Source of the DNA: an uncultured virus (IMG/VR IMGVR_UViG_3300042468_000189)
Taxonomy: Duplodnaviria > Heunggongvirae > Uroviricota > Caudoviricetes
Direction: 5' to 3' (one strand)
Length of the DNA: 20,000 nt
IMG/VR virus record: IMGVR_UViG_3300042468_000189
The notes below the pieces were generated by a model. That model saw only the letters and a list, made by a program, of their open reading frames with translations, was not told the origin of the DNA and ran no database searches. The position numbers and the translations under genes were made by a program. Shown here piece after piece: positions 586 to 11,517 of the stretch (the stretch's first letter is position 1; every line of letters begins with the position of its first letter).

Positions 586-2205
586 ATGGCACAGATTCCT
601 TTTTCCCCGCCTCAGACACAGGCTGCGCTACAAAACCCTGTCCGGTTTCCTGACCAAAGACTTCAGGAATATGCTAGAGGTCAACAGCCCACTGGACAAG
701 TCACGCCACAGATGGCGCAGCAAGAGATGATGGCTCGTGGTAACGAGCGTCAAGCTTTTCAGCGCCAACAAGCTATGCAAAACAATCCTGCAAACAGCCC
801 AACCATCTTTCAACAGAAGGATATGGAGTTGCAACAAAAGGCTCAGCAGCTTGCTGCGATGGGGCAACAGATACAACAAAAAGAACAACAGCTTGGTCTA
901 CTTGGCGCACTCATGGCTAAAAAAGAACAGGATCTTGCTGGACGCGAACAAGGTATTGCCACACTGCCGATGCGTCCTGATATGTTTACTGCGATGGATG
1001 GCGGTATTGTGTTTAGCGGTGGGGGTGGTGTACTTGGGTTTAAAAAAGGTGGCGATAGGGGCGAAATGGACCCAGAAAATGCTGCGGAATCTCCTTACCG
1101 TATTAGCGAGTCTGTTGAAGAAGAAGTTCCTTCAACCACAGGTACATCTACAGGTAAGTTAGATCCCCTCCAAGAAATTATGGCTGCTCGTCGCCGTATT
1201 ACTGAGCGTGGTGATAAAACTATGCTCTCGGAAGCTAAACAAAAAGATCTTAGAGATCAACGTATTGCTGAAATGGCTGCGGAGTTTGGAGAATACGAGA
1301 AGGGTAGGTCTGGTAGAGAAGCTCGTATGGCTGAAGCTTTGCGGGGCCAAAAACCTGAGTTAATGGATTATCTTGGCGCGATGGCAGCGGGGGGTCCAAA
1401 GCGTACGCTCGGTGAGACTTTATCTGCTATGGTCCCCGGCACTCAGAAACTTCGTGCTGAACAGCAAGCTCGTAACATGGCAGCAGCTAAATACCTTGCA
1501 GAAGCTGAAGAAAAAGCTGCTCAAGCTGAACTTGCTGAGAAACGTGGTCAACGTGCTGCTGCGGATAAACTGATTCAAGATAAGCAGGCACTAGAGCTTA
1601 AAGCATTTGAAGTTGCAAAAGGTGTTGAAGACACAGGCATCCGTGCGCTTACATCTGTCGCTGAAGCAGAAAGAGGAGAACGTAGCGAAGCTAGAAGAGC
1701 ACAAGAAGCTGCGGAAAGAATGGCGTTGGAAAGAGAGAAATTTAAATCTGAAGAAGCTTACCGCGCTGGTGACCGTGCATTCAAAGAGAAGATGGTTAGG
1801 CTTGAAGCTAGCTTACGACCAAAAGACTTCTATAACCAACTTCTCGGTATGGCAACTAATCCAAAAGATCCTAACTACGAATTTGCTAAGAATTTACTTG
1901 AAGCTCGTGGGGGTCGTAGTGGTGCGGGTGCAGATGGTAGACCGACGTTTGATCAAATAACAGACAACGTAGAGAAGCGTATGCAGAGCACTGATATAAA
2001 TAAAATTATCAAGGCTGCTGCTAAAGATCCTAAGAACCCTCGTACCTTGACTGAAGCTGACATACGTGAGATGTTTTTTGACGAGGAAATAGCAAGAGCT
2101 AAGAGGTTCTACGGGGAAGATGTTTTTAAAGGTATGAAACCATCTAAGTCTTCAGATGCTGGAGCTGTAGACACATCAAATCCACTTCTTTCAGGTAAGC
2201 CCTAA
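586..2205 (+). CDS. Putative internal virion (ejection) protein, 539 aa, Gln-rich N-terminus and long coiled coil
   Basis: Long ORF starting 3 nt after the previous stop, G-rich RBS (GGGGG 574-578), Ala/Glu/Lys/Gln helical composition and a tandem xxxGG motif cluster. Function inferred from context. Confidence 0.6.
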   Translation: MAQIPFSPPQTQAALQNPVRFPDQRLQEYARGQQPTGQVTPQMAQQEMMARGNERQAFQRQQAMQNNPANSPTIFQQKDMELQQKAQQLAAMGQQIQQKEQQLGLLGALMAKKEQDLAGREQGIATLPMRPDMFTAMDGGIVFSGGGGVLGFKKGGDRGEMDPENAAESPYRISESVEEEVPSTTGTSTGKLDPLQEIMAARRRITERGDKTMLSEAKQKDLRDQRIAEMAAEFGEYEKGRSGREARMAEALRGQKPELMDYLGAMAAGGPKRTLGETLSAMVPGTQKLRAEQQARNMAAAKYLAEAEEKAAQAELAEKRGQRAAADKLIQDKQALELKAFEVAKGVEDTGIRALTSVAEAERGERSEARRAQEAAERMALEREKFKSEEAYRAGDRAFKEKMVRLEASLRPKDFYNQLLGMATNPKDPNYEFAKNLLEARGGRSGAGADGRPTFDQITDNVEKRMQSTDINKIIKAAAKDPKNPRTLTEADIREMFFDEEIARAKRFYGEDVFKGMKPSKSSDAGAVDTSNPLLSGKP

Positions 2206-2210
2206 TTGCC

Positions 2211-5200
2211 ATGCCGACACTGCTGGAGATCCTGCAAGACCCCAACTACATCAACGCAAATCCTGCTACAAAAAAAGCTATCTTTGATAAGTACGCTCCG
2301 CAGGATTCTAATTATGTAGATGCTAATGACGCTACCAAAGCTGCCATACGGCAGCGTTTTGGGTTAAGCACTGCTGCTCCTGCTGTCAAAAAACAATACG
2401 GTGTACCCTTAGAAGTTCCTCCTGAAGATAAGGAAGGGTTTGTCCCCGCTGTTAAGGCAGGGTATGAATCACTCAAAGGATCGCTTGCGCTTGCTGCTGG
2501 TAAAGCAGGACTAATGGATCTTAAAGAAGCCGAGCGTTATCAAGCAGAGCGCGAAGCAGAAGCCCAGAGGGTATTCACACCTACTGAAAAGGGTTGGTCT
2601 GAAGCGCCTTTTCAAAAATTTAAAGAGACTTTGGGTGGTTCATTACCTTATATGGCTGCACCTATTGCTGCGGCTGCGGGTGCCGCTGCGCTTCCTGTTA
2701 CGGGTACTGCCGCTACATTAGCCACTTTGGGCGCAACTGGTTTAGTGTCTGCTACGCAGTTCACAGGTACTAATCTTGCGAGACAGCTTGACGAAGTAAA
2801 GCGCACTAATCCTAATGCGGGGCTTGAACAAACAAGTTTAGGTAGCGCCGTTGCCGCTGCCATACCACAGACTGCGCTAGATATTGTTGGTATGAAAGCT
2901 ATCCCACTAGTGCGTGGGTTGTTTAAGTCTGTTGGTAAAGAAGTCACTGAACAACAAGCTAAGAACTTTGCCGAGCAAGGGTTCCGTCGCACACTTGCTG
3001 ATTACTCTTTAGCTACAGGCAAAGCTGCGGGTGTTGAAGGTGCTACTGAGACAGGGCAACAATTTTTAGAGCGTCTACAAGCTGGGTTAAACATTGCAGA
3101 TGCTGATGCTCGTAAAGAGTACGTTGAAAGTTTTATTGGTGGTGCTGTTCTTGGTGGCGCACTTTCTCCTGCTGGTCGATACATTGAGCGACGCAGGGAA
3201 GCAAAGACTCCCGAAGAACGTTCTGCAATTGATGAAGCACAAGCCAAGATTGATGCAGAGCAGCTAGCAAAGCAGAAAGAAGATCTTCAAGGGAAAGCCG
3301 CTGCGGTAAATGTAGAAGACATTGCTGCTAGGACGCAAGAGCTTGCTAAAGAACCTGCTACTGCTGGTGACGTATTAACTGCTGCTACTCAAGCAGCACA
3401 AGAAAAGTTAGCTGAGCAAGCAACTCCAGAACAAAAAGTAGCGGAAGCTGCTACTAAAGTTGATGCGCTTACTTCTAGGATTAATGAACTTACTGACGAA
3501 TACATAGCTGCTGGAGATTCCCCTGATCAAGCCAAAATCAAAGCCGCTGCTCAGGCTGCGGAAGAGGAACGAAACGACCAAGAGGCTGACCAAGCTCTAT
3601 CCGAACTTGCAGAAATTCAAGCCGAAGCCGGAAAGGAGGCAGAAGATGCTGCTAAAGCTATCGAACAAGGAGGTGGAGAAAGCGTTCCAATTCCTAGCCG
3701 ACCCGACGGAGGAGTACCCACCGGAGGAGTTGAGCCACCTGTCGCCGGTGGAGTGGAACGCCCTGCACGTCCTGCTGAACCAACTGTACGAGGAGAGGAA
3801 GTACCATCCGGTGCAGTAGAAGAAAAAACTCAACCCCCAAAGGAAATCCCCAGTGTCACTACGCCCACTGAAACCAAGCAAGCAAAAGAAGAAGGAGCAG
3901 CAGCGCCTGCTGAAGGAACAAAAGTGGCAAAACTTGCCACAGCAGCCAAACCTGCCGGTGTACCAAAAGCAGCAGCCCCTCAAGTAACAATTATTAATCA
4001 GTATCCTGGCAAGAATACAAACGGCCAAAATACAAAAGATCTTGTGCTCTCAAACGGAGAGACCGTTACTATTACGAATGTAGGTGAAGGGCGTAAGCCT
4101 AAGTGGGTTAGGCGTGTAAATGGTGAGGAAGAAGTTCTTGGCACTAACTTAAAAGATGCGTTTCTAAAAGTTAGATCTGATGCTGTGCCTACTGGCCCTG
4201 CGCCTAAACGTGGTCCGAAACCTAAGCTGACTGAGGAAGAAAAAGAAGCTCGTGCTGTTGAGTCGGGGATGCGTACTGAGGAACTTAACGCAATTGAAAA
4301 TATTATTCTTTCTACTAAGAAGCTAAAAGGTTCTGACCGCCCCGGCTTGGCTACGATGTTGGATCTGTTCCTTGGCCCAAGACCCGAATCTAAAGCTTCC
4401 ATGCAGCAGTACCACGATACTTTTATGAAAGGTATTGAGGGTCAGTTTGCAAACATTGGTAATCCAGAAACTAGAACAGAAACTCTTAACGACTATATAA
4501 CTAAGAGAGTGCTCCCTGTTTTGGAAGAGCTGTACCGCCTTGGTACTGATCCAAGGTATGCAAACACTCGCATCCGTGATCTCGCTATGAGTAATTTTGA
4601 GCGTGGTCCTAGCAATATTAAAAAGGGCATCATAGCGCGAGCTGAACGCCGTAAAGAAGAGACTAAGCCTGTAGAGCAAACAGAAGCTGTTAGCGAAGAA
4701 CCCATAGTCACACCCAAGGCTCCCACTGGCCCTGCACCTGTCGTTACTACTAAGGTAAAGAAGCGTACGTTCGTAAAACCAGAAGGTGGTCCTGGTGCTC
4801 TTGCTCAGGCAGATATTTCAGAAACGGAATTACAGTCAACCAGCCCTGCCTTAAATCCAAAGATCGAAGCCGGTGCGCCTAAGACAGGTAAAGACGCTGC
4901 CCAGATTATTGCAAAAGATCCTAAGAGCAATAAGTTTGAACGCACCTTGGCACAAAAATTGGTGTCTGCGTTAGGGAATATAAAATTCATAATTGTTTCT
5001 AATAAGTCTAAGCAAGGGCTTATTGATAATTTCAAGAAGCAAAAAGCTAGGGGGTTGTTCATACCCACTAACGATATGGTCGTTGTAGCAGGGAGCGATC
5101 TGTCAGGGGTAGGGCAAGGCGTAAACAACCAGACTGTTTTGCACGAGCTACTACATGCGGGGACTGCGGTAAAAATCTACGAAGGTGAGCAGATTGTAAA

Positions 5201-8200
5201 AGCTGACCCTAGAAGCACAGACCCAAGGGCGCTTGCGTATCGTAAATTAGTACGGTTAATGGCTGCTGCACGGGACGCAGCCGATGATGCGGATAAGCTT
5301 CCTGATGGTCATCCATACAAAGAATTTGTAAAAAGCTTAAATCAAAAGTTCACCAAAGGTAAAGCTCTAACCAATGTGTATGAGTTTTTAACCTACGGTA
5401 TGACTGATGGGGACTTTCAGCAGTTCTTAAGCACAGTGCAGTTTGGCAAAACGCAAAGCGTCATGAGCACTTTTGTAGCTACGATTAGACAGCTACTTGG
5501 GCTTAGTAAAAACGATGAGTCTGCGCTTGCTAACCTTATTGAAGTAACAGACACGCTCTTGTCACTGGAGCCTTCCGTTGCCGACGCGCAGGCTAAAATA
5601 GAAATACTCTCCCAGAAAAAAGACGTACAGACCGCTGCCGATGTGCAAGTCAAATATGCTAACGACGTAATCAATACGCCTCGTAGCCAAGGCCCATCTG
5701 TATCTGCGCTGAACCAAGCTATAGCTAACGGTATGGATCTATCTAGTCAGGCAGAGCTTGCTGGTGCTATTGCAGAAGGTGCTATGTCTGGTGCTAGAAA
5801 ACATATTCTTGGTGCGTTTACTCCTAGCCAACTTGCAAAACTTGTTAAAGACAAAATCCCTGCGCTTACTCGTGTGGTCGATCTTGGTCGGAAGTTCAAC
5901 GCTAAGCGCCAGCAGTACGTCGATGAGATGAAAGATGTTATGAAGCCGTGGCTTAAGCTTCAACGCAACGACCGTGAACAAAGTCAGTTGCTTGCCACCA
6001 TCATGCACCTCTCTACAGTTAACGGTATAGACCCAAGCATCCCCGGTAAAGATCGTCTTGCATCCACGCCGCAGTCAGATACCTTGGATGATCTGTGGGA
6101 AAAGCTTGGCGAACCGGGGCGCAAGATTTATATCGATGTACGTGATTACTACGCTAAGCAATATGAAACGTATAAAGATCTTTTGAACAAACGTATTGAA
6201 ATGATGGGGATCTCCGATGAGGAGAAAACCAAGTTCATGGATCTGCTCAAGAAACAATTTGAGTCAGACAAAGTAGCTAAGCCTTACTTCCCTCTTATGA
6301 GATATGGAGAGAACTGGTTGCGTGTCGGCAAAGGCAAGGACATGGAGTTTTATATGTTTGAGTCTGCCTCAGAGCGCAACCGCTTCGCCATCCGTAGAGC
6401 TAAGGAGATGGGCAAGCCGCTGAAGGATTTGTACGCCGACGGTACGCTCAAGCGTGGTGACCAGCTTAAGAATATGATGGAAGAAAGCTTTGCTGATACG
6501 ACGAAGCTAAAAGAAGTTCTTGCTGCTGTAGACAAGTTAGGCATCGACACTGATAAGGCATCGATCAAGGACGAGATCTATCAGATGTATCTGCTCACGC
6601 TGCCAGAGAAGAGCTTCCGCAAACAGTTTATTCATCGTAAAAACACAGCAGGTTTTAGCGCAGATGCCCTACGGAACTTTGGCACTGCGGGTTTCCGTAT
6701 GTCCAATCAACTTGCCAAGATGGAGTACCAACCCCAGATCGTCAACACACTTGACGAAGCAAGAGAGTCTATCAAGGATGACCCTGACGCATCTAAGTAT
6801 CGTCCTTATATCGAAGAAGTAGCAGGCGACTTTGACGCTGCTGTTAATCCTAAGAACGAAAACTCTATCCTGAACTTTGCAGCCAACGGACTATCGACGC
6901 TCAACTTCTTCTACTACATGAGTTCGATCTCGTCTGCTCTGACGAACATGACTTCGCTGCCTGTGTTTGGTTATCCCACACTGCTTGCTGAGTATGGCAA
7001 GACTCCCGGCGGCGCAAAGGATGTGCACAAAGAGCTTGTGCGGTTCATGAATGTCTACAAGGAAGTTGGGTTCCGACGCAAGGTTAATGGTAAGACTGAA
7101 TATGTTATGCCTTCCATACGCAATGCGTTGACCAATGCTGATGAGATTAAGGCTTACGATGAGTTTGCGGCTGACAACCTTTTCTCATTCAACCGCTCGA
7201 TGGATTTGCTCAATATCGTCAAGTCTCCTTCTCAGGAAGCTACTAACCCTAACATTTTGAAAGTGCCTGTTCAGGCTGCAACCGATGCTGTCTCTACGTT
7301 GTTCTCCATGACGGAACAACTACCCCGCGAGATGATGGCTATGGCTGCTTATCGCTTAGGACGCAGTCAAGGTTTGTCGCATGATGAAGCTACTAAAAAA
7401 GCTTTGGATCTGACGCATGATGCGATGTACGACTACTCCATGTTTGATACACCCAGATACTTCCGTGGGCCGGTTGGCAGAACCATATTCCAGTTCAAGA
7501 AATTTTCACAGAACACGGCGTTCTATCTCACGACTAATTTCTTGCAAATGTTTAAAGGTGCAGATCCTACGATTAGGAAGCAAGCTGCAACGCGCTTCTT
7601 CGGCACACTAGGTATGACAGGTATGTTTGCAGGTCTGACGGGTATGCCGTTGTACACCGTGATGTCTACCGTTGCCGAGAAAGTATTAAGTGCATTTGGT
7701 GATGATGACGATGACGAAGACAGTGCAGCTTTCCAGATACGCAAGTACGGATTTGATTTGTGGTTTAAGAAGTGGCTGTCCGAAAACTTTGGCGCAAATG
7801 TAGCAACCTACGTCGCTATGGGTCCGGTCACTGGGCTAACAGGTGCAGACTTCAACTCGCGGGTCAAACTTAACGATCTATTCTTCCAAGATTGGGAGTT
7901 TAAAGGGTTGCTCGGCCCAAGCTTCGGTATGTTTGAGAATGCCCAACGTGCGTACGACAGATTCAAAGAAGGGCAAACCGAGAGGGCTATCGAGACCATG
8001 ATGCCTGCGTTCATCAGGCAACCGCTGAAAGCGTATCGCTTTAGCGAAGAAGGAGTAAAGACTCCAAAAGGCTACGAGGTTGTAGCGCAAGAAGATTTGA
8101 ACTGGATGGACATAGCCATGCAGAGTATTGGGTACGCCCCAATCAAAGTGTCCGCAAAACAAACTGAGAACTTTAAGCTTAAGAAGCTAGAACAGGAACG

Positions 8201-8453
8201 GGAAGAAGAGCGCACAGAACTGCTAAAGCGTTCGGTCTATGCGCGACGGGGTATTTCTGACGAAGACCCCGATGATATTCAGGAAGATATTGATAAGTTC
8301 AACAGTAAGTTTCCCAACCGTCGAATCCTCCCTGTAACCATCATGCAGTCGGATCAAGCTAGGCGTAGGCAGGAACGTGCCGTAGACCAAGGGTTGTATA
8401 TAGCCAACCCGATGAACCGACGCGAACTCTTAGAGCTGAGAGCTAAAGAGTAA
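2211..8453 (+). CDS. Large polyvalent internal virion protein (2080 aa) with a zincin-like metallopeptidase domain
   Basis: Uninterrupted 6.2-kb ORF. Gly/Ala hydrophobic segments near the N-terminus, a Pro/Glu-rich linker, HELLH (H978-H982, nt 5142-5156) with a downstream Glu in NVYEFLTYG (E1058), and a helical C-terminal region with hydrophobic segments. Last gene of the structural arm. Confidence 0.8.
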   Translation: MPTLLEILQDPNYINANPATKKAIFDKYAPQDSNYVDANDATKAAIRQRFGLSTAAPAVKKQYGVPLEVPPEDKEGFVPAVKAGYESLKGSLALAAGKAGLMDLKEAERYQAEREAEAQRVFTPTEKGWSEAPFQKFKETLGGSLPYMAAPIAAAAGAAALPVTGTAATLATLGATGLVSATQFTGTNLARQLDEVKRTNPNAGLEQTSLGSAVAAAIPQTALDIVGMKAIPLVRGLFKSVGKEVTEQQAKNFAEQGFRRTLADYSLATGKAAGVEGATETGQQFLERLQAGLNIADADARKEYVESFIGGAVLGGALSPAGRYIERRREAKTPEERSAIDEAQAKIDAEQLAKQKEDLQGKAAAVNVEDIAARTQELAKEPATAGDVLTAATQAAQEKLAEQATPEQKVAEAATKVDALTSRINELTDEYIAAGDSPDQAKIKAAAQAAEEERNDQEADQALSELAEIQAEAGKEAEDAAKAIEQGGGESVPIPSRPDGGVPTGGVEPPVAGGVERPARPAEPTVRGEEVPSGAVEEKTQPPKEIPSVTTPTETKQAKEEGAAAPAEGTKVAKLATAAKPAGVPKAAAPQVTIINQYPGKNTNGQNTKDLVLSNGETVTITNVGEGRKPKWVRRVNGEEEVLGTNLKDAFLKVRSDAVPTGPAPKRGPKPKLTEEEKEARAVESGMRTEELNAIENIILSTKKLKGSDRPGLATMLDLFLGPRPESKASMQQYHDTFMKGIEGQFANIGNPETRTETLNDYITKRVLPVLEELYRLGTDPRYANTRIRDLAMSNFERGPSNIKKGIIARAERRKEETKPVEQTEAVSEEPIVTPKAPTGPAPVVTTKVKKRTFVKPEGGPGALAQADISETELQSTSPALNPKIEAGAPKTGKDAAQIIAKDPKSNKFERTLAQKLVSALGNIKFIIVSNKSKQGLIDNFKKQKARGLFIPTNDMVVVAGSDLSGVGQGVNNQTVLHELLHAGTAVKIYEGEQIVKADPRSTDPRALAYRKLVRLMAAARDAADDADKLPDGHPYKEFVKSLNQKFTKGKALTNVYEFLTYGMTDGDFQQFLSTVQFGKTQSVMSTFVATIRQLLGLSKNDESALANLIEVTDTLLSLEPSVADAQAKIEILSQKKDVQTAADVQVKYANDVINTPRSQGPSVSALNQAIANGMDLSSQAELAGAIAEGAMSGARKHILGAFTPSQLAKLVKDKIPALTRVVDLGRKFNAKRQQYVDEMKDVMKPWLKLQRNDREQSQLLATIMHLSTVNGIDPSIPGKDRLASTPQSDTLDDLWEKLGEPGRKIYIDVRDYYAKQYETYKDLLNKRIEMMGISDEEKTKFMDLLKKQFESDKVAKPYFPLMRYGENWLRVGKGKDMEFYMFESASERNRFAIRRAKEMGKPLKDLYADGTLKRGDQLKNMMEESFADTTKLKEVLAAVDKLGIDTDKASIKDEIYQMYLLTLPEKSFRKQFIHRKNTAGFSADALRNFGTAGFRMSNQLAKMEYQPQIVNTLDEARESIKDDPDASKYRPYIEEVAGDFDAAVNPKNENSILNFAANGLSTLNFFYYMSSISSALTNMTSLPVFGYPTLLAEYGKTPGGAKDVHKELVRFMNVYKEVGFRRKVNGKTEYVMPSIRNALTNADEIKAYDEFAADNLFSFNRSMDLLNIVKSPSQEATNPNILKVPVQAATDAVSTLFSMTEQLPREMMAMAAYRLGRSQGLSHDEATKKALDLTHDAMYDYSMFDTPRYFRGPVGRTIFQFKKFSQNTAFYLTTNFLQMFKGADPTIRKQAATRFFGTLGMTGMFAGLTGMPLYTVMSTVAEKVLSAFGDDDDDEDSAAFQIRKYGFDLWFKKWLSENFGANVATYVAMGPVTGLTGADFNSRVKLNDLFFQDWEFKGLLGPSFGMFENAQRAYDRFKEGQTERAIETMMPAFIRQPLKAYRFSEEGVKTPKGYEVVAQEDLNWMDIAMQSIGYAPIKVSAKQTENFKLKKLEQEREEERTELLKRSVYARRGISDEDPDDIQEDIDKFNSKFPNRRILPVTIMQSDQARRRQERAVDQGLYIANPMNRRELLELRAKE
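3646..3819 (+). CDS. Candidate overprinted small gene (57 aa, +1 frame) nested in the giant virion gene
   Basis: AAGGAGG at 3633-3639, 6-nt spacer, ATG at 3646. Product MLLKLSNKEVEKAFQFLADPTEEYPPEELSHLSPVEWNALHVLLNQLYEERKYHPVQ looks like two amphipathic helices. The host frame here is a Pro/Gly linker with atypical codons. Confidence 0.6.
   Translation: MLLKLSNKEVEKAFQFLADPTEEYPPEELSHLSPVEWNALHVLLNQLYEERKYHPVQ
3853..3987 (+). CDS. Second candidate overprinted ORF (44 aa, +1 frame, basic and Gln-rich)
   Basis: AAGGA at 3840-3844, 8-nt spacer, GTG at 3853, TAA at 3985-3987. Product MSLRPLKPSKQKKKEQQRLLKEQKWQNLPQQPNLPVYQKQQPLK. Confidence 0.3.
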   Translation: MSLRPLKPSKQKKKEQQRLLKEQKWQNLPQQPNLPVYQKQQPLK

Positions 8454-8537: not shown

Positions 8538-8732
8538 TTAAACTCTCCAAACGCGAACCCCTTGGATGCCTTCCTCAATTACTGTCTTCATAACAACTTT
8601 AAAACGCATCCGCCGCATCTCCTCGCGGATCGTAACTTTGGCCGCAGCGCAATCTAAGCAGGGTATAAAAAACGAACTACCCTTCACAAAGTTGCGCCAG
8701 TTAATGTTGAAGTTAACTTGGTGTACTAGCAT
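8538..8732 (-). CDS. Small phage protein (64 aa), possibly DNA-binding
   Basis: ATG overlaps the end of the primase gene. The GxSFF...GVRVWR pattern is one I recognise from small phage hypothetical proteins. Ends just before the terminator region. Confidence 0.7.
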   Translation of the reverse strand: MLVHQVNFNINWRNFVKGSSFFIPCLDCAAAKVTIREEMRRMRFKVVMKTVIEEGIQGVRVWRV

Positions 8733-11517
8733 CGGCAGGTACTATCATTTCCTCAACGTCGAGGAAGTTGCCGTTCGTGCAATCAAACACCAAGCAGTAG
8801 ACAGGTGGCGCTGTGATCTTCATGCCCTTGGTGATGCGCTTAACTTCAGAATTAATCAGTACCTTGTCTTTCTCCAACTTGCGAGTAAGTTCCCTGTAAG
8901 TTATTTGAGCCTTGGCGCAGTCTGCTCTGAAGTGTTTAGCATTGATATACATCCGCTTGCTGTCTGGTTCGTATCGTATGTATAGCGGACCCTTGGGTTC
9001 TAAGATTGGTGCAGCGGACATCTGTGTGCGCGAGTCAACCTCTGCATTGACGACAAGGATGTTCTGCATGTGCCTACCGATATAGTCACCGATGACGCTT
9101 GCTACATTATCAAGTGGAGGTCGCACATGCTGACGCAAAACATGGATCTGTTCAGTAACCCATACGTAAACGTTCCGCATGTTGAAGTCATGAAGCCCAA
9201 GCTCTTTGGCGATAAGTCCCCCTGCTATGTTGCAAGCAATGAGTGCCGACCAGAACCGCTCACGAGAAGTTAGTCTGACTTCCTTATCAATCTTGGCTTG
9301 AACTGAGCGCACCATGTTGATAACGTAATCTTTGTTGCTGACAAGGTAGGAGAAGTAGATGTCGGCGGCGTGACCGTAATTGCTCTCTAACTGCACATCA
9401 AACATCTGCTTGGCATACTGCTCATCCAACCCGCTGCTATAAATCACATACTCAAAGACCCGCATCATCTCTCCGTCTACCGAGTCCCGTGCTATCTGTA
9501 GCTTGTCGTAAAGACTAGCGTTGGAAGTCATAATTTCTATAAGCTCCCACCGCTCGGTGTTTGATCTGAGTTGGTTGACGCTTGCTTGCGCTCGCTCTTT
9601 GTCACGGCCTTGAGTTACTTGGTACAAGTGCGATCCGATGTCTTCAGCAGGAACCTTGGTAACTTCATCGTATGTGTGGCATATGTTATTAAAGATAGCA
9701 AGCTTGCGAGCTACTGCATTCTGCGTATCCTTCCACATCGACATAAGTTCCGTGGGTTTGCCGACCACACTATTAATAACACGAAGGATCGTTGATTTAC
9801 CTGGGCCTGAGTCACCACTGATTAAGTTAATAGCAGCACCACGAATTCCAGTAAACTTTAGTAGGGGGCTACCGAATGCTGTTAACGCAGCATAAGCATA
9901 GGGTTCTAACCCCTCCTTACCGTAGACGTTGAAGCATTCTTTCCATTTATCAAACTCACCTATTGCAACCATGTTTGGCGCAAACTGATCGGTGGATGCC
10001 GATGGGGGGCTGTAGTGGATGCCCGTTGCCGTTATCTCTCTATCGCCAACGATGAACTTACTGTCACCGTCGCACCATCCGAATTGTGTTCTCATCTTGT
10101 CAGCCTTTCTGCTCACTTGTAGTTCTTTAACGAATGTCATGATGTAGCCAAGCAGTAGTTCTTGTTGCTTAGCTGTTGCTGCTACCCCTTTTTCTGCTAG
10201 CGCCTCGCGCAGCTTTTCTTTAACGACAACTGACGTAAGCGGTACAGAAAATTCTTTTACTCCATCCTGTGGTAGATGAAGTTTGAACACAACCATCTCG
10301 CCCTCAATCGGATGCACCATCCTTCGGACGACATAAAGATCGTGTTCGTACACAACCTGCGCGTCTTCCTCCTCCGAGATCGGACGTTTATAAACACCCC
10401 CTGCTTTACCCCGAAAATATGGGAATGGGTATTCGGGTACGGAATGAACAATCGCAGGCTCATCGTCTTTTGCTTCTTCAATGATCTCGTTAGTTGTAGC
10501 TTCAGCAATCTCAAGCCCAAGCAAAATAGGACTCTTGATCTTGCCTTTGTGTATGCACTCGTCACAACCGCCGGGGTTAAACTTTTCAAACGTAGCGCAA
10601 CCGTATGGGCCTTTAATCCGATTAGCCTTCTTCTCGGTTTCGTCTGGATCGTACTGCTCGTAGTTTTTTGATATGGCGTGTATCGCCACATCTCTGTCTA
10701 CGCAATACTGTGCAACTGAAAGCCCCGCCCTCCATATCGGCTCAGACATCTCCTGCTGATGCGTTGTTATGTACTTAATCTGATTACAACCAAAGTCACG
10801 ATCTGTCTTAATCAGAATAGTCTTGAAGTGGAACTCGCGGTTATTGGCAAGTGACTTCGTTAGCTCATTGACTTGACGTGGTAGGAAGTCTGGTACTTCT
10901 TCCTTAAAAACTAGAACACCAAGAGTCTGCCTTAGCTCCTCAAAGTCAACTGGCTCGCCTGTATATAGCAGCGTTACATCAAGCGGGTCGTCTGGATCTT
11001 TGAGGTTCTTTGTATCTGGCAGACGCAGTATCCGCGCCTTATCTGCTGTGCATGCAGGGTCAGCACTGAGGAACCCTTCTTCACATAGTGCCTTCAACCT
11101 GTCCGCAGCGGGTTGCCATACAGCAGGTGCTACTGGGGTTTTGAATGTCCAGTATGCGTGTATGCCGCGCCCACTGTTGACAAGTGTCGGCCTTGGTAAT
11201 GCGTTGTCCTTACAAAAAGTTTTGAGTGCCGCGATGCCTTGCGTTTGATCTTCATAAGGTTTGTCTGTTCCGCAATCTATATCTAACCAGAGTGCACGGA
11301 ACTCTTTGGTGTTGTCTCCTGATCTTGTGGTTGGTTCCTTAAACGTAGCGCAGGCATAGTAAGCATCGAACCCATCGTCCACCAACTGCTGCCCCGCCTG
11401 TATAACTTCTTCAGCAGACTCAACAAATTTCTTGATGACTCGTTTGTTCTTTATACCTACTACACAGCGCCACCCCTCCGGTGCATGCACCGCAGATAAC
11501 AACTCAAGCGCCGACAT
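8713..11517 (-). CDS. AEP-type primase fused to a Cys-rich domain and a DUF927-like/P-loop helicase (934 aa)
   Basis: AEP motifs WLDID, SGRGIHAYW and D..RILRLP. Cys cluster C...PYGC...CDEC. FGW motif, Walker A GDSGPGKST and Walker B TYDE. RBS GGAGG upstream. Confidence 0.88.
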   Translation of the reverse strand: MSALELLSAVHAPEGWRCVVGIKNKRVIKKFVESAEEVIQAGQQLVDDGFDAYYACATFKEPTTRSGDNTKEFRALWLDIDCGTDKPYEDQTQGIAALKTFCKDNALPRPTLVNSGRGIHAYWTFKTPVAPAVWQPAADRLKALCEEGFLSADPACTADKARILRLPDTKNLKDPDDPLDVTLLYTGEPVDFEELRQTLGVLVFKEEVPDFLPRQVNELTKSLANNREFHFKTILIKTDRDFGCNQIKYITTHQQEMSEPIWRAGLSVAQYCVDRDVAIHAISKNYEQYDPDETEKKANRIKGPYGCATFEKFNPGGCDECIHKGKIKSPILLGLEIAEATTNEIIEEAKDDEPAIVHSVPEYPFPYFRGKAGGVYKRPISEEEDAQVVYEHDLYVVRRMVHPIEGEMVVFKLHLPQDGVKEFSVPLTSVVVKEKLREALAEKGVAATAKQQELLLGYIMTFVKELQVSRKADKMRTQFGWCDGDSKFIVGDREITATGIHYSPPSASTDQFAPNMVAIGEFDKWKECFNVYGKEGLEPYAYAALTAFGSPLLKFTGIRGAAINLISGDSGPGKSTILRVINSVVGKPTELMSMWKDTQNAVARKLAIFNNICHTYDEVTKVPAEDIGSHLYQVTQGRDKERAQASVNQLRSNTERWELIEIMTSNASLYDKLQIARDSVDGEMMRVFEYVIYSSGLDEQYAKQMFDVQLESNYGHAADIYFSYLVSNKDYVINMVRSVQAKIDKEVRLTSRERFWSALIACNIAGGLIAKELGLHDFNMRNVYVWVTEQIHVLRQHVRPPLDNVASVIGDYIGRHMQNILVVNAEVDSRTQMSAAPILEPKGPLYIRYEPDSKRMYINAKHFRADCAKAQITYRELTRKLEKDKVLINSEVKRITKGMKITAPPVYCLVFDCTNGNFLDVEEMIVPADASTPS

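Follow-up and report, generated by a model that had tools for sequence, protein, structure and literature searches.

Among the closest described systems are the embedded spanin genes, Rz1 inside Rz of phage lambda and 18.7 inside 18.5 of phage T7. The lipoprotein Rz1 carries a signal peptide and a lipobox cysteine, and it is the partner of the product of its host gene. In the present work, a nested open reading frame (ORF), named ORF-A, was analyzed in a 20,000-nucleotide stretch, called the window, of an uncultured virus of the Caudoviricetes (IMG/VR record IMGVR_UViG_3300042468_000189). ORF-A resembles the embedded spanin genes: it is a small gene that is enclosed completely by a larger one in a phage, is shifted to the +1 frame, and has its own Shine-Dalgarno (SD) sequence and start codon, and both frames are in use. 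Unlike Rz1, neither ORF-A nor a second nested frame downstream of it (ORF-B) encodes a cysteine, and the ORF-A product (P0001) gave no Pfam Rz1 match. In contrast to the spanin genes, constraint here is stronger on the nested frame, the host frame across ORF-A forms a relaxed linker, and a free-standing homologue is found in bacteria.

Genes also overlap in microviruses and other small viruses, as with B in A, E in D, and K of phiX174, a subject of reviews (PMC8227390, PMC7017920). These overlaps share same-strand, out-of-frame dual coding and asymmetric constraint with ORF-A. They belong to tiny, size-pressed genomes and the nested gene is usually taken as the younger one, whereas the present locus has two tandem nested ORFs in double-stranded DNA genomes of about 56–65 kb. 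The host gene of ORF-A belongs to another context, the multidomain polyvalent proteins, whose differing domains are outlined by Iyer et al. 2017 (PMC5512222). Like the polyvalent and P1 DarB-like injected proteins, the host gene product has LPD39, a DarB-like C-terminal region, and middle domains that vary between relatives. Full-text literature searches turned up no paper on a gene nested in the gene of a polyvalent, DarB-like, or PLxRFG protein.

The stretch 3646–3819 is most probably a genuine protein-coding gene, at a probability of roughly 0.88. It lies one base out of frame in a giant gene and is followed by ORF-B in the same frame, which would make this a dual-coding stretch. ORF-A is wholly within the same-strand ORF 2211–8453 and occupies its +1 frame. 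The initial annotation of this DNA had described a +1-frame ORF of 57 aa over host residues of about 479–537, where the host frame becomes low-complexity, and the translations confirmed this. The same annotation ranked AAGGAGG-N6-ATG among the best ribosome-binding sites of the window. Its coordinates were correct, and AAGGAGG-N4-9-ATG occurred once in the 20 kb on both strands together, with 0.18 occurrences expected and at least one in 35 of 200 shuffles. The other genes of the window have AAAGGAG-type SDs, the same SD type as ORF-A. The reported preference for GGA in the overlap and for GGT elsewhere also held. Glycine was encoded by GGA in 8 and GGT in 3 of 11 overlap codons, against 10 GGA, 63 GGT, 29 GGG, and 29 GGC among the 131 glycine codons of the gene outside the overlap (Fisher p = 1.7e-6). 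There are 93 ORFs of at least 50 aa in the window, and five plus-strand ORFs of 52–64 aa lie in the giant gene besides ORF-A. Judged on the single sequence, ORF-A is within chance; the proof is the comparison with relatives.

Four sets of phage loci were examined, 127 in total (12 + 30 + 80 + 5), with 12 contigs common to the first two sets. The first set was retrieved with host-protein motifs outside the overlap, without the use of the peptide, and contained 21 viral loci, 12 of them spanning the linker. The second set came from a peptide-motif search and contained 30 loci of the window's group (12 on first-set contigs; 25 unique sequences). For the third set, a viral scan with four members of the profile clusters confirmed 233 stretches; the best 80 were examined, with 45 unique distant sequences. 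The fourth set consisted of five true matches from a distant AT-rich branch. Three other matches of the AT-rich-branch scan (L138–L140) lay in an unrelated ORF of about 385 aa and were excluded as false.

The ORF, start, and SD-like motif of ORF-A were kept in all 127 phage loci. In the first set, ORF-A was intact in 12/12 loci with identical start, stop, and length, also in relatives with a giant protein of only 63–75% identity; the alignment was gapless. All 30 loci of the second set were nested in an ORF of 621–1858 aa and had an SD-like motif. Among the 28 starts shown, 5 were GTG and the others ATG, and the 25 unique sequences aligned without gaps and with the same stop codon position. 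The giant-protein domains flanking ORF-A were unrelated in the distant relatives of this set. Nesting was also found in 80/80 loci of the third set (host-frame ORF of 653–1715 aa within the locus; peptide of 56–58 aa), where the start codon was ATG in 73, GTG in 6, and TTG in 1, and a GGAG-type SD-like motif was seen, without a tally, upstream of most. In the fourth set, 5/5 were nested in a longer host-frame ORF. Overall, the phage peptides were 55–62 aa long, mostly 56–58, from the conserved start to the aligned stop position. Internal +1-frame stops or loss of the start in homologous linkers, which the initial annotation had named among the findings that would speak against a gene, were found in none of the phage loci examined.

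When 1.84 billion representative proteins were searched with a profile, 143 clusters matched at E ≤ 0.001, 18 of them at E ≤ 1e-10. Almost all matched clusters were 47–110 aa long, with the match reaching the C-terminus. DNA context was seen for the 127 phage loci and for 15 bacterial loci, and not for most of the 143 clusters. The exact ORF-A protein was absent from a collection of 15 billion proteins, where relatives occur sporadically as 'hypothetical protein'. This is consistent with the earlier proposal of a real nested gene missed by annotators, which the conservation in 127/127 loci and the purifying selection on the +1 frame strongly support.

Selection was investigated in both frames. 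In the first set, variable columns at host codon positions 1/2/3 numbered 21/12/43 in the 58 upstream codons and 28/16/9 in the overlap (chi-square p = 3.8e-5). The wobble position of the +1 frame coincides with host position 1, and therefore the +1 frame is the constrained one. Differences that are silent in one frame but alter the residue in the other were then counted in the style of OLGenie, giving dNN/dNS for the +1 frame and dNN/dSN for the host frame (N, nonsynonymous; S, synonymous). In the first set, the +1 dNN/dNS was 0.30 (confidence interval, CI, 0.16–0.56) and the host dNN/dSN was 1.37 (CI 0.57–3.94). The 25 unique second-set sequences gave 0.40 (CI 0.24–0.65) and 1.46, respectively. 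Thus, the frame-specific check proposed in the initial annotation came out as predicted there, and no purifying selection is detectable on the host-frame residues across ORF-A. The control frames (sense +2 and two antisense frames) had ratios of 1.2–2.5. Among the 45 unique distant sequences, mean pairwise identity was 58.7% for the +1 peptide and 35.4% for the host frame, and the ratio of this set was unchanged after leaving out nine retrieval codons.

The whole giant gene was also scanned (2080 codons, 10 sequences). The fraction of synonymous differences was 0.12–0.55, except for a dip to 0.03–0.10 at codons 485–575. Host position 3 was less variable than position 1 at these codons only, and the host coding pattern returned on both sides. 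When the synonymous codons of ORF-A were redrawn at random, the host frame was open in 1.4% of trials (0.4–7%); in natural sequences it was always open, so that translation of the giant protein runs through the ORF-A stretch.

The dip in synonymous variation extends beyond the ORF-A stop. It covers a second module at about 3843–3945, which is conserved at the nucleotide level in relatives and carries the start and the conserved part of ORF-B. ORF-B begins 33 bases 3' of ORF-A and was overlooked in the initial annotation. Its conserved part is the first 28 or so residues (to about 3945), with an invariant KPSKQ core. The +1 frame of ORF-B is near-invariant while the host frame drifts, and the +1 dNN/dNS was 0.05 (CI 0.02–0.12), a tighter constraint than on ORF-A. 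The residues of ORF-B were kept across switches between AGC and TCN for serine and between CGC and AGG for arginine, by which host-frame residues were altered. ORF-B was found 75 times in 74 of 113 sources, and the start position was fixed in 74 of these occurrences (GTG 42, TTG 22, ATG 10), with one exception. An SD-like motif was present within −16 to −4 in 73/75, and an in-frame stop lay at most 10 codons upstream in 41/75. The length varied from 18 to 50 aa, with a mode of 23. Module B was never used for retrieval and therefore gives an independent confirmation of the +1-frame reading. The features of the locus are listed in the table.

Table. Coordinates of the nested ORFs, their start signals, and the host gene in the window.
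Feature	Position	Strand	Details
ORF-A, nested 57-aa acidic protein (P0001)	3646..3819	+	+1 frame of host gene; stop TAG 3817-3819; conservation, selection, structure model
Shine-Dalgarno AAGGAGG of ORF-A	3633..3639	+	6 bases 5' of the ORF-A start; ATG at 3646-3648
Host-frame linker, codons 479-537	3645..3821	+	Gly/Pro/Glu/Val-rich, read across ORF-A; dNN/dSN, open frame, Gly codons
ORF-B, second +1 ORF, 44 aa	3853..3987	+	GTG start; polybasic (pI 10.6, net charge +8.5); stop TAA 3985-3987
SD-like AAAGGAAA before the ORF-B start	3839..3846	+	AAAGGAAA-N6-GTG
Host gene, 2080-aa giant polyvalent/DarB-like virion protein (P0002)	2211..8453	+	ORF and translation, Pfam, PHROG, tblastn

The distance from ORF-A to module B varied from 18 to about 700 bases, with domain cassettes lying between them. 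In several relatives (L008/L032, L012/L033, L013/L030, L014/L026), cassettes of about 110–230 aa were inserted exactly between ORF-A and ORF-B, at the equivalent of window positions 3786–3860. The cassettes of L032 were flanked by repeats of the last 30 or so bases of ORF-A (host frame EE[VP]PSGAVE), and this locus also had a hybrid mini-ORF in which the ORF-B start was joined to the ORF-A tail. The edges of ORF-A and ORF-B look like joints for cassette exchange. Cassettes were found in L033 (about 3180–3480), in L026 (from about 3180), in L032 (about 3260–3850), and 3' of ORF-A in L044–L046. An inserted cassette starting ..TLYRG.. may resemble a domain of the ADP-ribosyltransferase type; another (..SLIQRGL.V.YNRAQRILEQLE..GVVS) may resemble the FtsK-gamma winged helix. 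Inside ORF-B, a hairpin GTGGC..GCCAC of 5–7 bp was observed at window positions 3924–3940 and was kept in 19–20 of 20 sequences of the window's group. It showed changes from U-A to U-G only, and it had a terminator-like score on the minus strand.

The ORF-A product is acidic, with a pI (isoelectric point) of 5.0 and a net charge of −5. Its three-dimensional structure was predicted by AlphaFold2 from a 22-row alignment. The model was confident and had helices at residues 7–18, 27–29 (short), and 34–53, with a mean pLDDT (predicted local distance difference test) of 87 and a pTM (predicted template modeling score) of 0.66. The earlier guess of a helix-loop-helix thus fits the predicted model. 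Foldseek searches of the model against PDB and BFVD found nothing at E ≤ 0.001. The best VIA-align Z was 5.0, to three-helix domains of the homeodomain/Myb/SANT type (root-mean-square deviation 2.7–3.4 over 52–57 residues), which is within the noise range. The ESM Atlas gave a top score of 0.79 for P0001 and no usable match for the family member P0014. ORF-A, its relatives, and ORF-B had no match in Pfam, PHROGs, or NCBIfam. The predicted ORF-A–ORF-B complex scored 0.02 against a mark of 0.32, in a prediction run without controls, and counts neither way.

A family branch (P0010/P0014) was absent from viral contigs and present in 15 metagenome loci. The protein of this branch has 58 aa and shares 51% identity with ORF-A (E = 2e-17), including the common motifs AFQF..P and PP..EL..L...W. 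Unlike ORF-A, this Burkholderiales/Betaproteobacteria protein is chromosomal and un-nested; the other two frames were open for at most 118 and at most 89 codons. Nesting, which the initial annotation had proposed to check in homologues, held for all phage loci; the bacterial homologue is free-standing. Source labels were Burkholderiales and Betaproteobacteria metagenome-assembled genomes, in which the protein is called hypothetical. A scan of prokaryote genomes with the family alignment confirmed two stretches. Seven unique bacterial copies had 17/7/52 variable columns by codon position and a GGAG motif before the ATG, and the free-standing bacterial gene is under purifying selection. ORF-B was not recognized after the bacterial homologue.

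The bacterial gene order was obg, rpmA, rplU, ispB, a FlgM-like gene, and the 58-aa gene, followed by variable genes. The FlgM-like gene was directly upstream of the 58-aa gene in 4/4 bacterial contexts checked (L141, L146, L153, L155). The order ispB, FlgM-like gene, 58-aa gene was conserved in these four contigs and adjoined rplU-rpmA-obg in L146, and the FlgM-like genes lay outside any flagellar cluster. In a tree of 86 peptides and 57 columns, the five bacterial rows formed one split (support 96/97). This split attached inside the window's phage group, beside a long branch; the tree is unrooted and gives no direction of transfer.

The comparison of relatives shows that the +1 frame carries the amino-acid information and that the giant frame, read as a low-complexity linker, needs only to stay open. 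Each small ORF would be translated by internal initiation on the giant-gene mRNA from its own SD and start, as these signals in the sequence suggest. No sigma-70-like internal promoter was found in 3200–4200, which implies co-expression of the small ORFs from the giant-gene mRNA. Because ORF-A has the strongest SD of the window and the giant gene an ATG without an SD, more of the ORF-A protein than of the giant protein may be made.

The function of ORF-A can be addressed tentatively. A selected free-standing gene survives in Burkholderiales-type chromosomes without the giant gene, right after a FlgM-like gene; for this reason, ORF-A might possibly act in trans on a cellular partner that is conserved, rather than serve as a chaperone dedicated to the giant protein. 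A partner of the transcription-factor or anti-sigma type is a weak lead, taken from the bacterial gene neighborhood alone. The initial annotation had raised other possibilities, namely a chaperone, an inhibitor, or a packaging factor serving the giant protein, and a role tied solely to that protein is something that the free-standing homologue speaks against. If both ORF-A and ORF-B were dedicated assembly, packaging, or ejection helpers, the physical linkage to the giant gene, strict in 127/127 phage loci, and the implied co-expression from one mRNA would be explained. The low dN/dS is also more in keeping with a housekeeping function in the phage than with an arms race, and binding to DNA or to an acidic partner is conceivable for the polybasic ORF-B. 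However, the homologue is under selection in bacterial chromosomes where no giant gene lies close by, and distant relatives retain ORF-A between unrelated giant-protein domains. A dedicated helper role is therefore considered unlikely.

Alternatives to the coding interpretation were also weighed. The stretch could be conserved as nucleic acid, as RNA structure or a joint for domain-cassette recombination, with no translation of the +1 frame. In some relatives (L008, L032), duplicates of the ORF-A 3' end and the ORF-B 5' end surround the cassettes, as expected of recombination joints, and the 5-bp hairpin at about 3924–3940 is kept in 19–20 of 20 sequences. However, variation in the stretch has a three-base period centered on the +1 wobble position. 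The serine and arginine codon-family switches alter two or three bases, keep the residues, and break local CAGCAG/CUGCUG pairing. The Alifold consensus of the ORF-A region consisted of two 5-bp helices at −3.1 kcal/mol, and the module-B hairpin had no compensatory change. No Rfam family reached the gathering level in 3400–4100 (best 17 bits against a threshold of 100), and the protein homologue is an ordinary bacterial gene. Conservation as nucleic acid without +1 translation is thus very unlikely.

Phage structural genes are known to use ribosomal frameshifts, as in lambda G-T and T7 10A/10B. If the +1 frame were reached by programmed frameshifting, the giant gene would yield a truncated N-terminal protein ending in an alternative tail and no independent small protein; the +1 frame of the window is open for 46 codons 5' of the ATG. 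In many relatives, however, a +1 stop lies 0–12 codons before the start; it is adjacent in L089, L099, L103, and L128 and 5–6 codons away in L039 and L052. The start codon and SD of ORF-A are conserved, and the bacterial homologue starts at the same methionine with its own SD, so that frameshifting is highly improbable. The probability that the constrained frame is instead a minus-strand ORF of 143 aa at 3597–4028 is negligible: it spans both modules, is open in the window, and shares the +1 wobble position (ratios of 0.38 for module A and 0.10 for module B), but stops occur inside the overlap in 14/25 unique relatives against 0/25 for the +1 frame, its codons are exactly opposite the host codons and so stay open wherever the linker lacks TTA, CTA, and TCA, and its product is rich in Cys, Phe, and Ser and has no conserved start. 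This ORF was rejected as a by-product.

Several observations weigh against ORF-A as a gene or against the function proposed for it. The antisense frame that has the wobble position of the +1 frame gave 0.38 against 0.40 for the +1 frame, and dN/dS alone cannot separate the two; they were told apart because of the stop codons, the start with its SD, and the bacterial homologue. Codon-usage fit was poor in both frames (−0.08 and −0.07 against +0.05 ± 0.05 elsewhere in the gene) and favors neither. Predicted mRNA structure at the ORF-A ATG was at the 22nd percentile, not weaker than in the rest of the gene; accessibility at the ORF-B start was at the 74th percentile and uninformative. The second to fourth sets were retrieved by +1-frame motifs and are biased toward retention of the peptide, a bias offset by the first set, by ORF-B, and by the exclusion of the retrieval codons. 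A tblastn search with P0001 and P0066 found nothing significant among 50,697 phage records, and no cultured member of the family is known. The functional reading draws solely on the bacterial gene neighborhood. There, the FlgM-like neighbors were below curated cut-offs, with 35–38 bits against 40.75 for TIGR03824 and 21–24 against 25 for Pfam FlgM. In phages, no FlgM-like signal was found in the host frame upstream of ORF-A (seven segments, E ≤ 10), and no FlgM-like match was found in the nearest phage record, a 56-kb viral contig.

The term "overprinted", used in the initial annotation, presumes that the small gene is the newcomer, and the order in which the linker frame and the small genes arose is not decided by the tree. 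A linker grown over pre-existing small genes is favored because of the tandem same-frame ORFs in operon-like spacing, the unconstrained and disordered host frame, and the free-standing homologues. A bolder scenario, which is speculative and rather improbable, would take ORF-A and ORF-B as the constant core of the locus and their family as one common to Burkholderiales chromosomes. Virion genes would have been fused by out-of-frame read-through, with the linker newborn and cassettes swapped at the edges. The products would be host-directed effectors on a sigma/anti-sigma (FlgM-like) circuit, made in large excess from strong internal ribosome-binding sites.

The host protein matched Pfam LPD39 at aa 1190–1342 (72.2 bits against a cut-off of 27) and the PHROG 'DarB-like antirestriction' at aa 1346–2076 (E = 1.3e-83). 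Signature domains of polyvalent proteins are therefore present in the host gene product as LPD39 and the DarB-like region. By tblastn, cultured phages of about 60 kb had 'DarB-like / PLxRFG' proteins that matched aa 1200–2075 only, at about 26% identity, and blastn found no cultured-phage match to window positions 3000–4500. Judging by the family names and an adjacent weak 'DNA ejection protein' match, the host protein would be carried in virions and ejected into host cells. Weak similarity to the PHROG 'virion RNA polymerase' (phage N4-type; E = 1.6e-18) was seen at aa 854–1156 (about 4770–5680), and aa 387–470, in the stretch of about 3255–3644 (aa 349–478), had a weak match to Pfam N4_RNAP_helical (E = 0.18).

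The ATG of the giant gene had no SD-like motif upstream (window 2205–2211), and an upstream 539-aa gene stops five bases earlier. This suggests that the giant gene may start by translational coupling to the 539-aa gene. The neighboring genes form a replication module on the opposite strand, with a DUF927 primase/helicase-like gene, an SNF2 helicase, a PD-(D/E)XK nuclease, and a family A polymerase. A 139-aa ORF with an ATG start at 8566–8985 on the plus strand had no family match; it overlaps the 3' end of the convergent DUF927 gene (8713–11517, minus strand) by about 270 bases.

Annotation of one frame per locus leaves both nested genes invisible in hundreds of phage contigs. ORF-A and ORF-B provide a clean comparative case of a nested pair in large double-stranded DNA phages, with the nested frame dominant and a free-standing homologue as a natural control. 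The case is suitable for testing which of the frames arose later where small genes and a giant multidomain gene overlap. The approach is transferable: the linkers of giant polyvalent genes can be searched for hidden genes through dips in synonymous variation. The two ORFs represent two new small-protein families, one of which is possibly linked to anti-sigma regulation in freshwater Betaproteobacteria.

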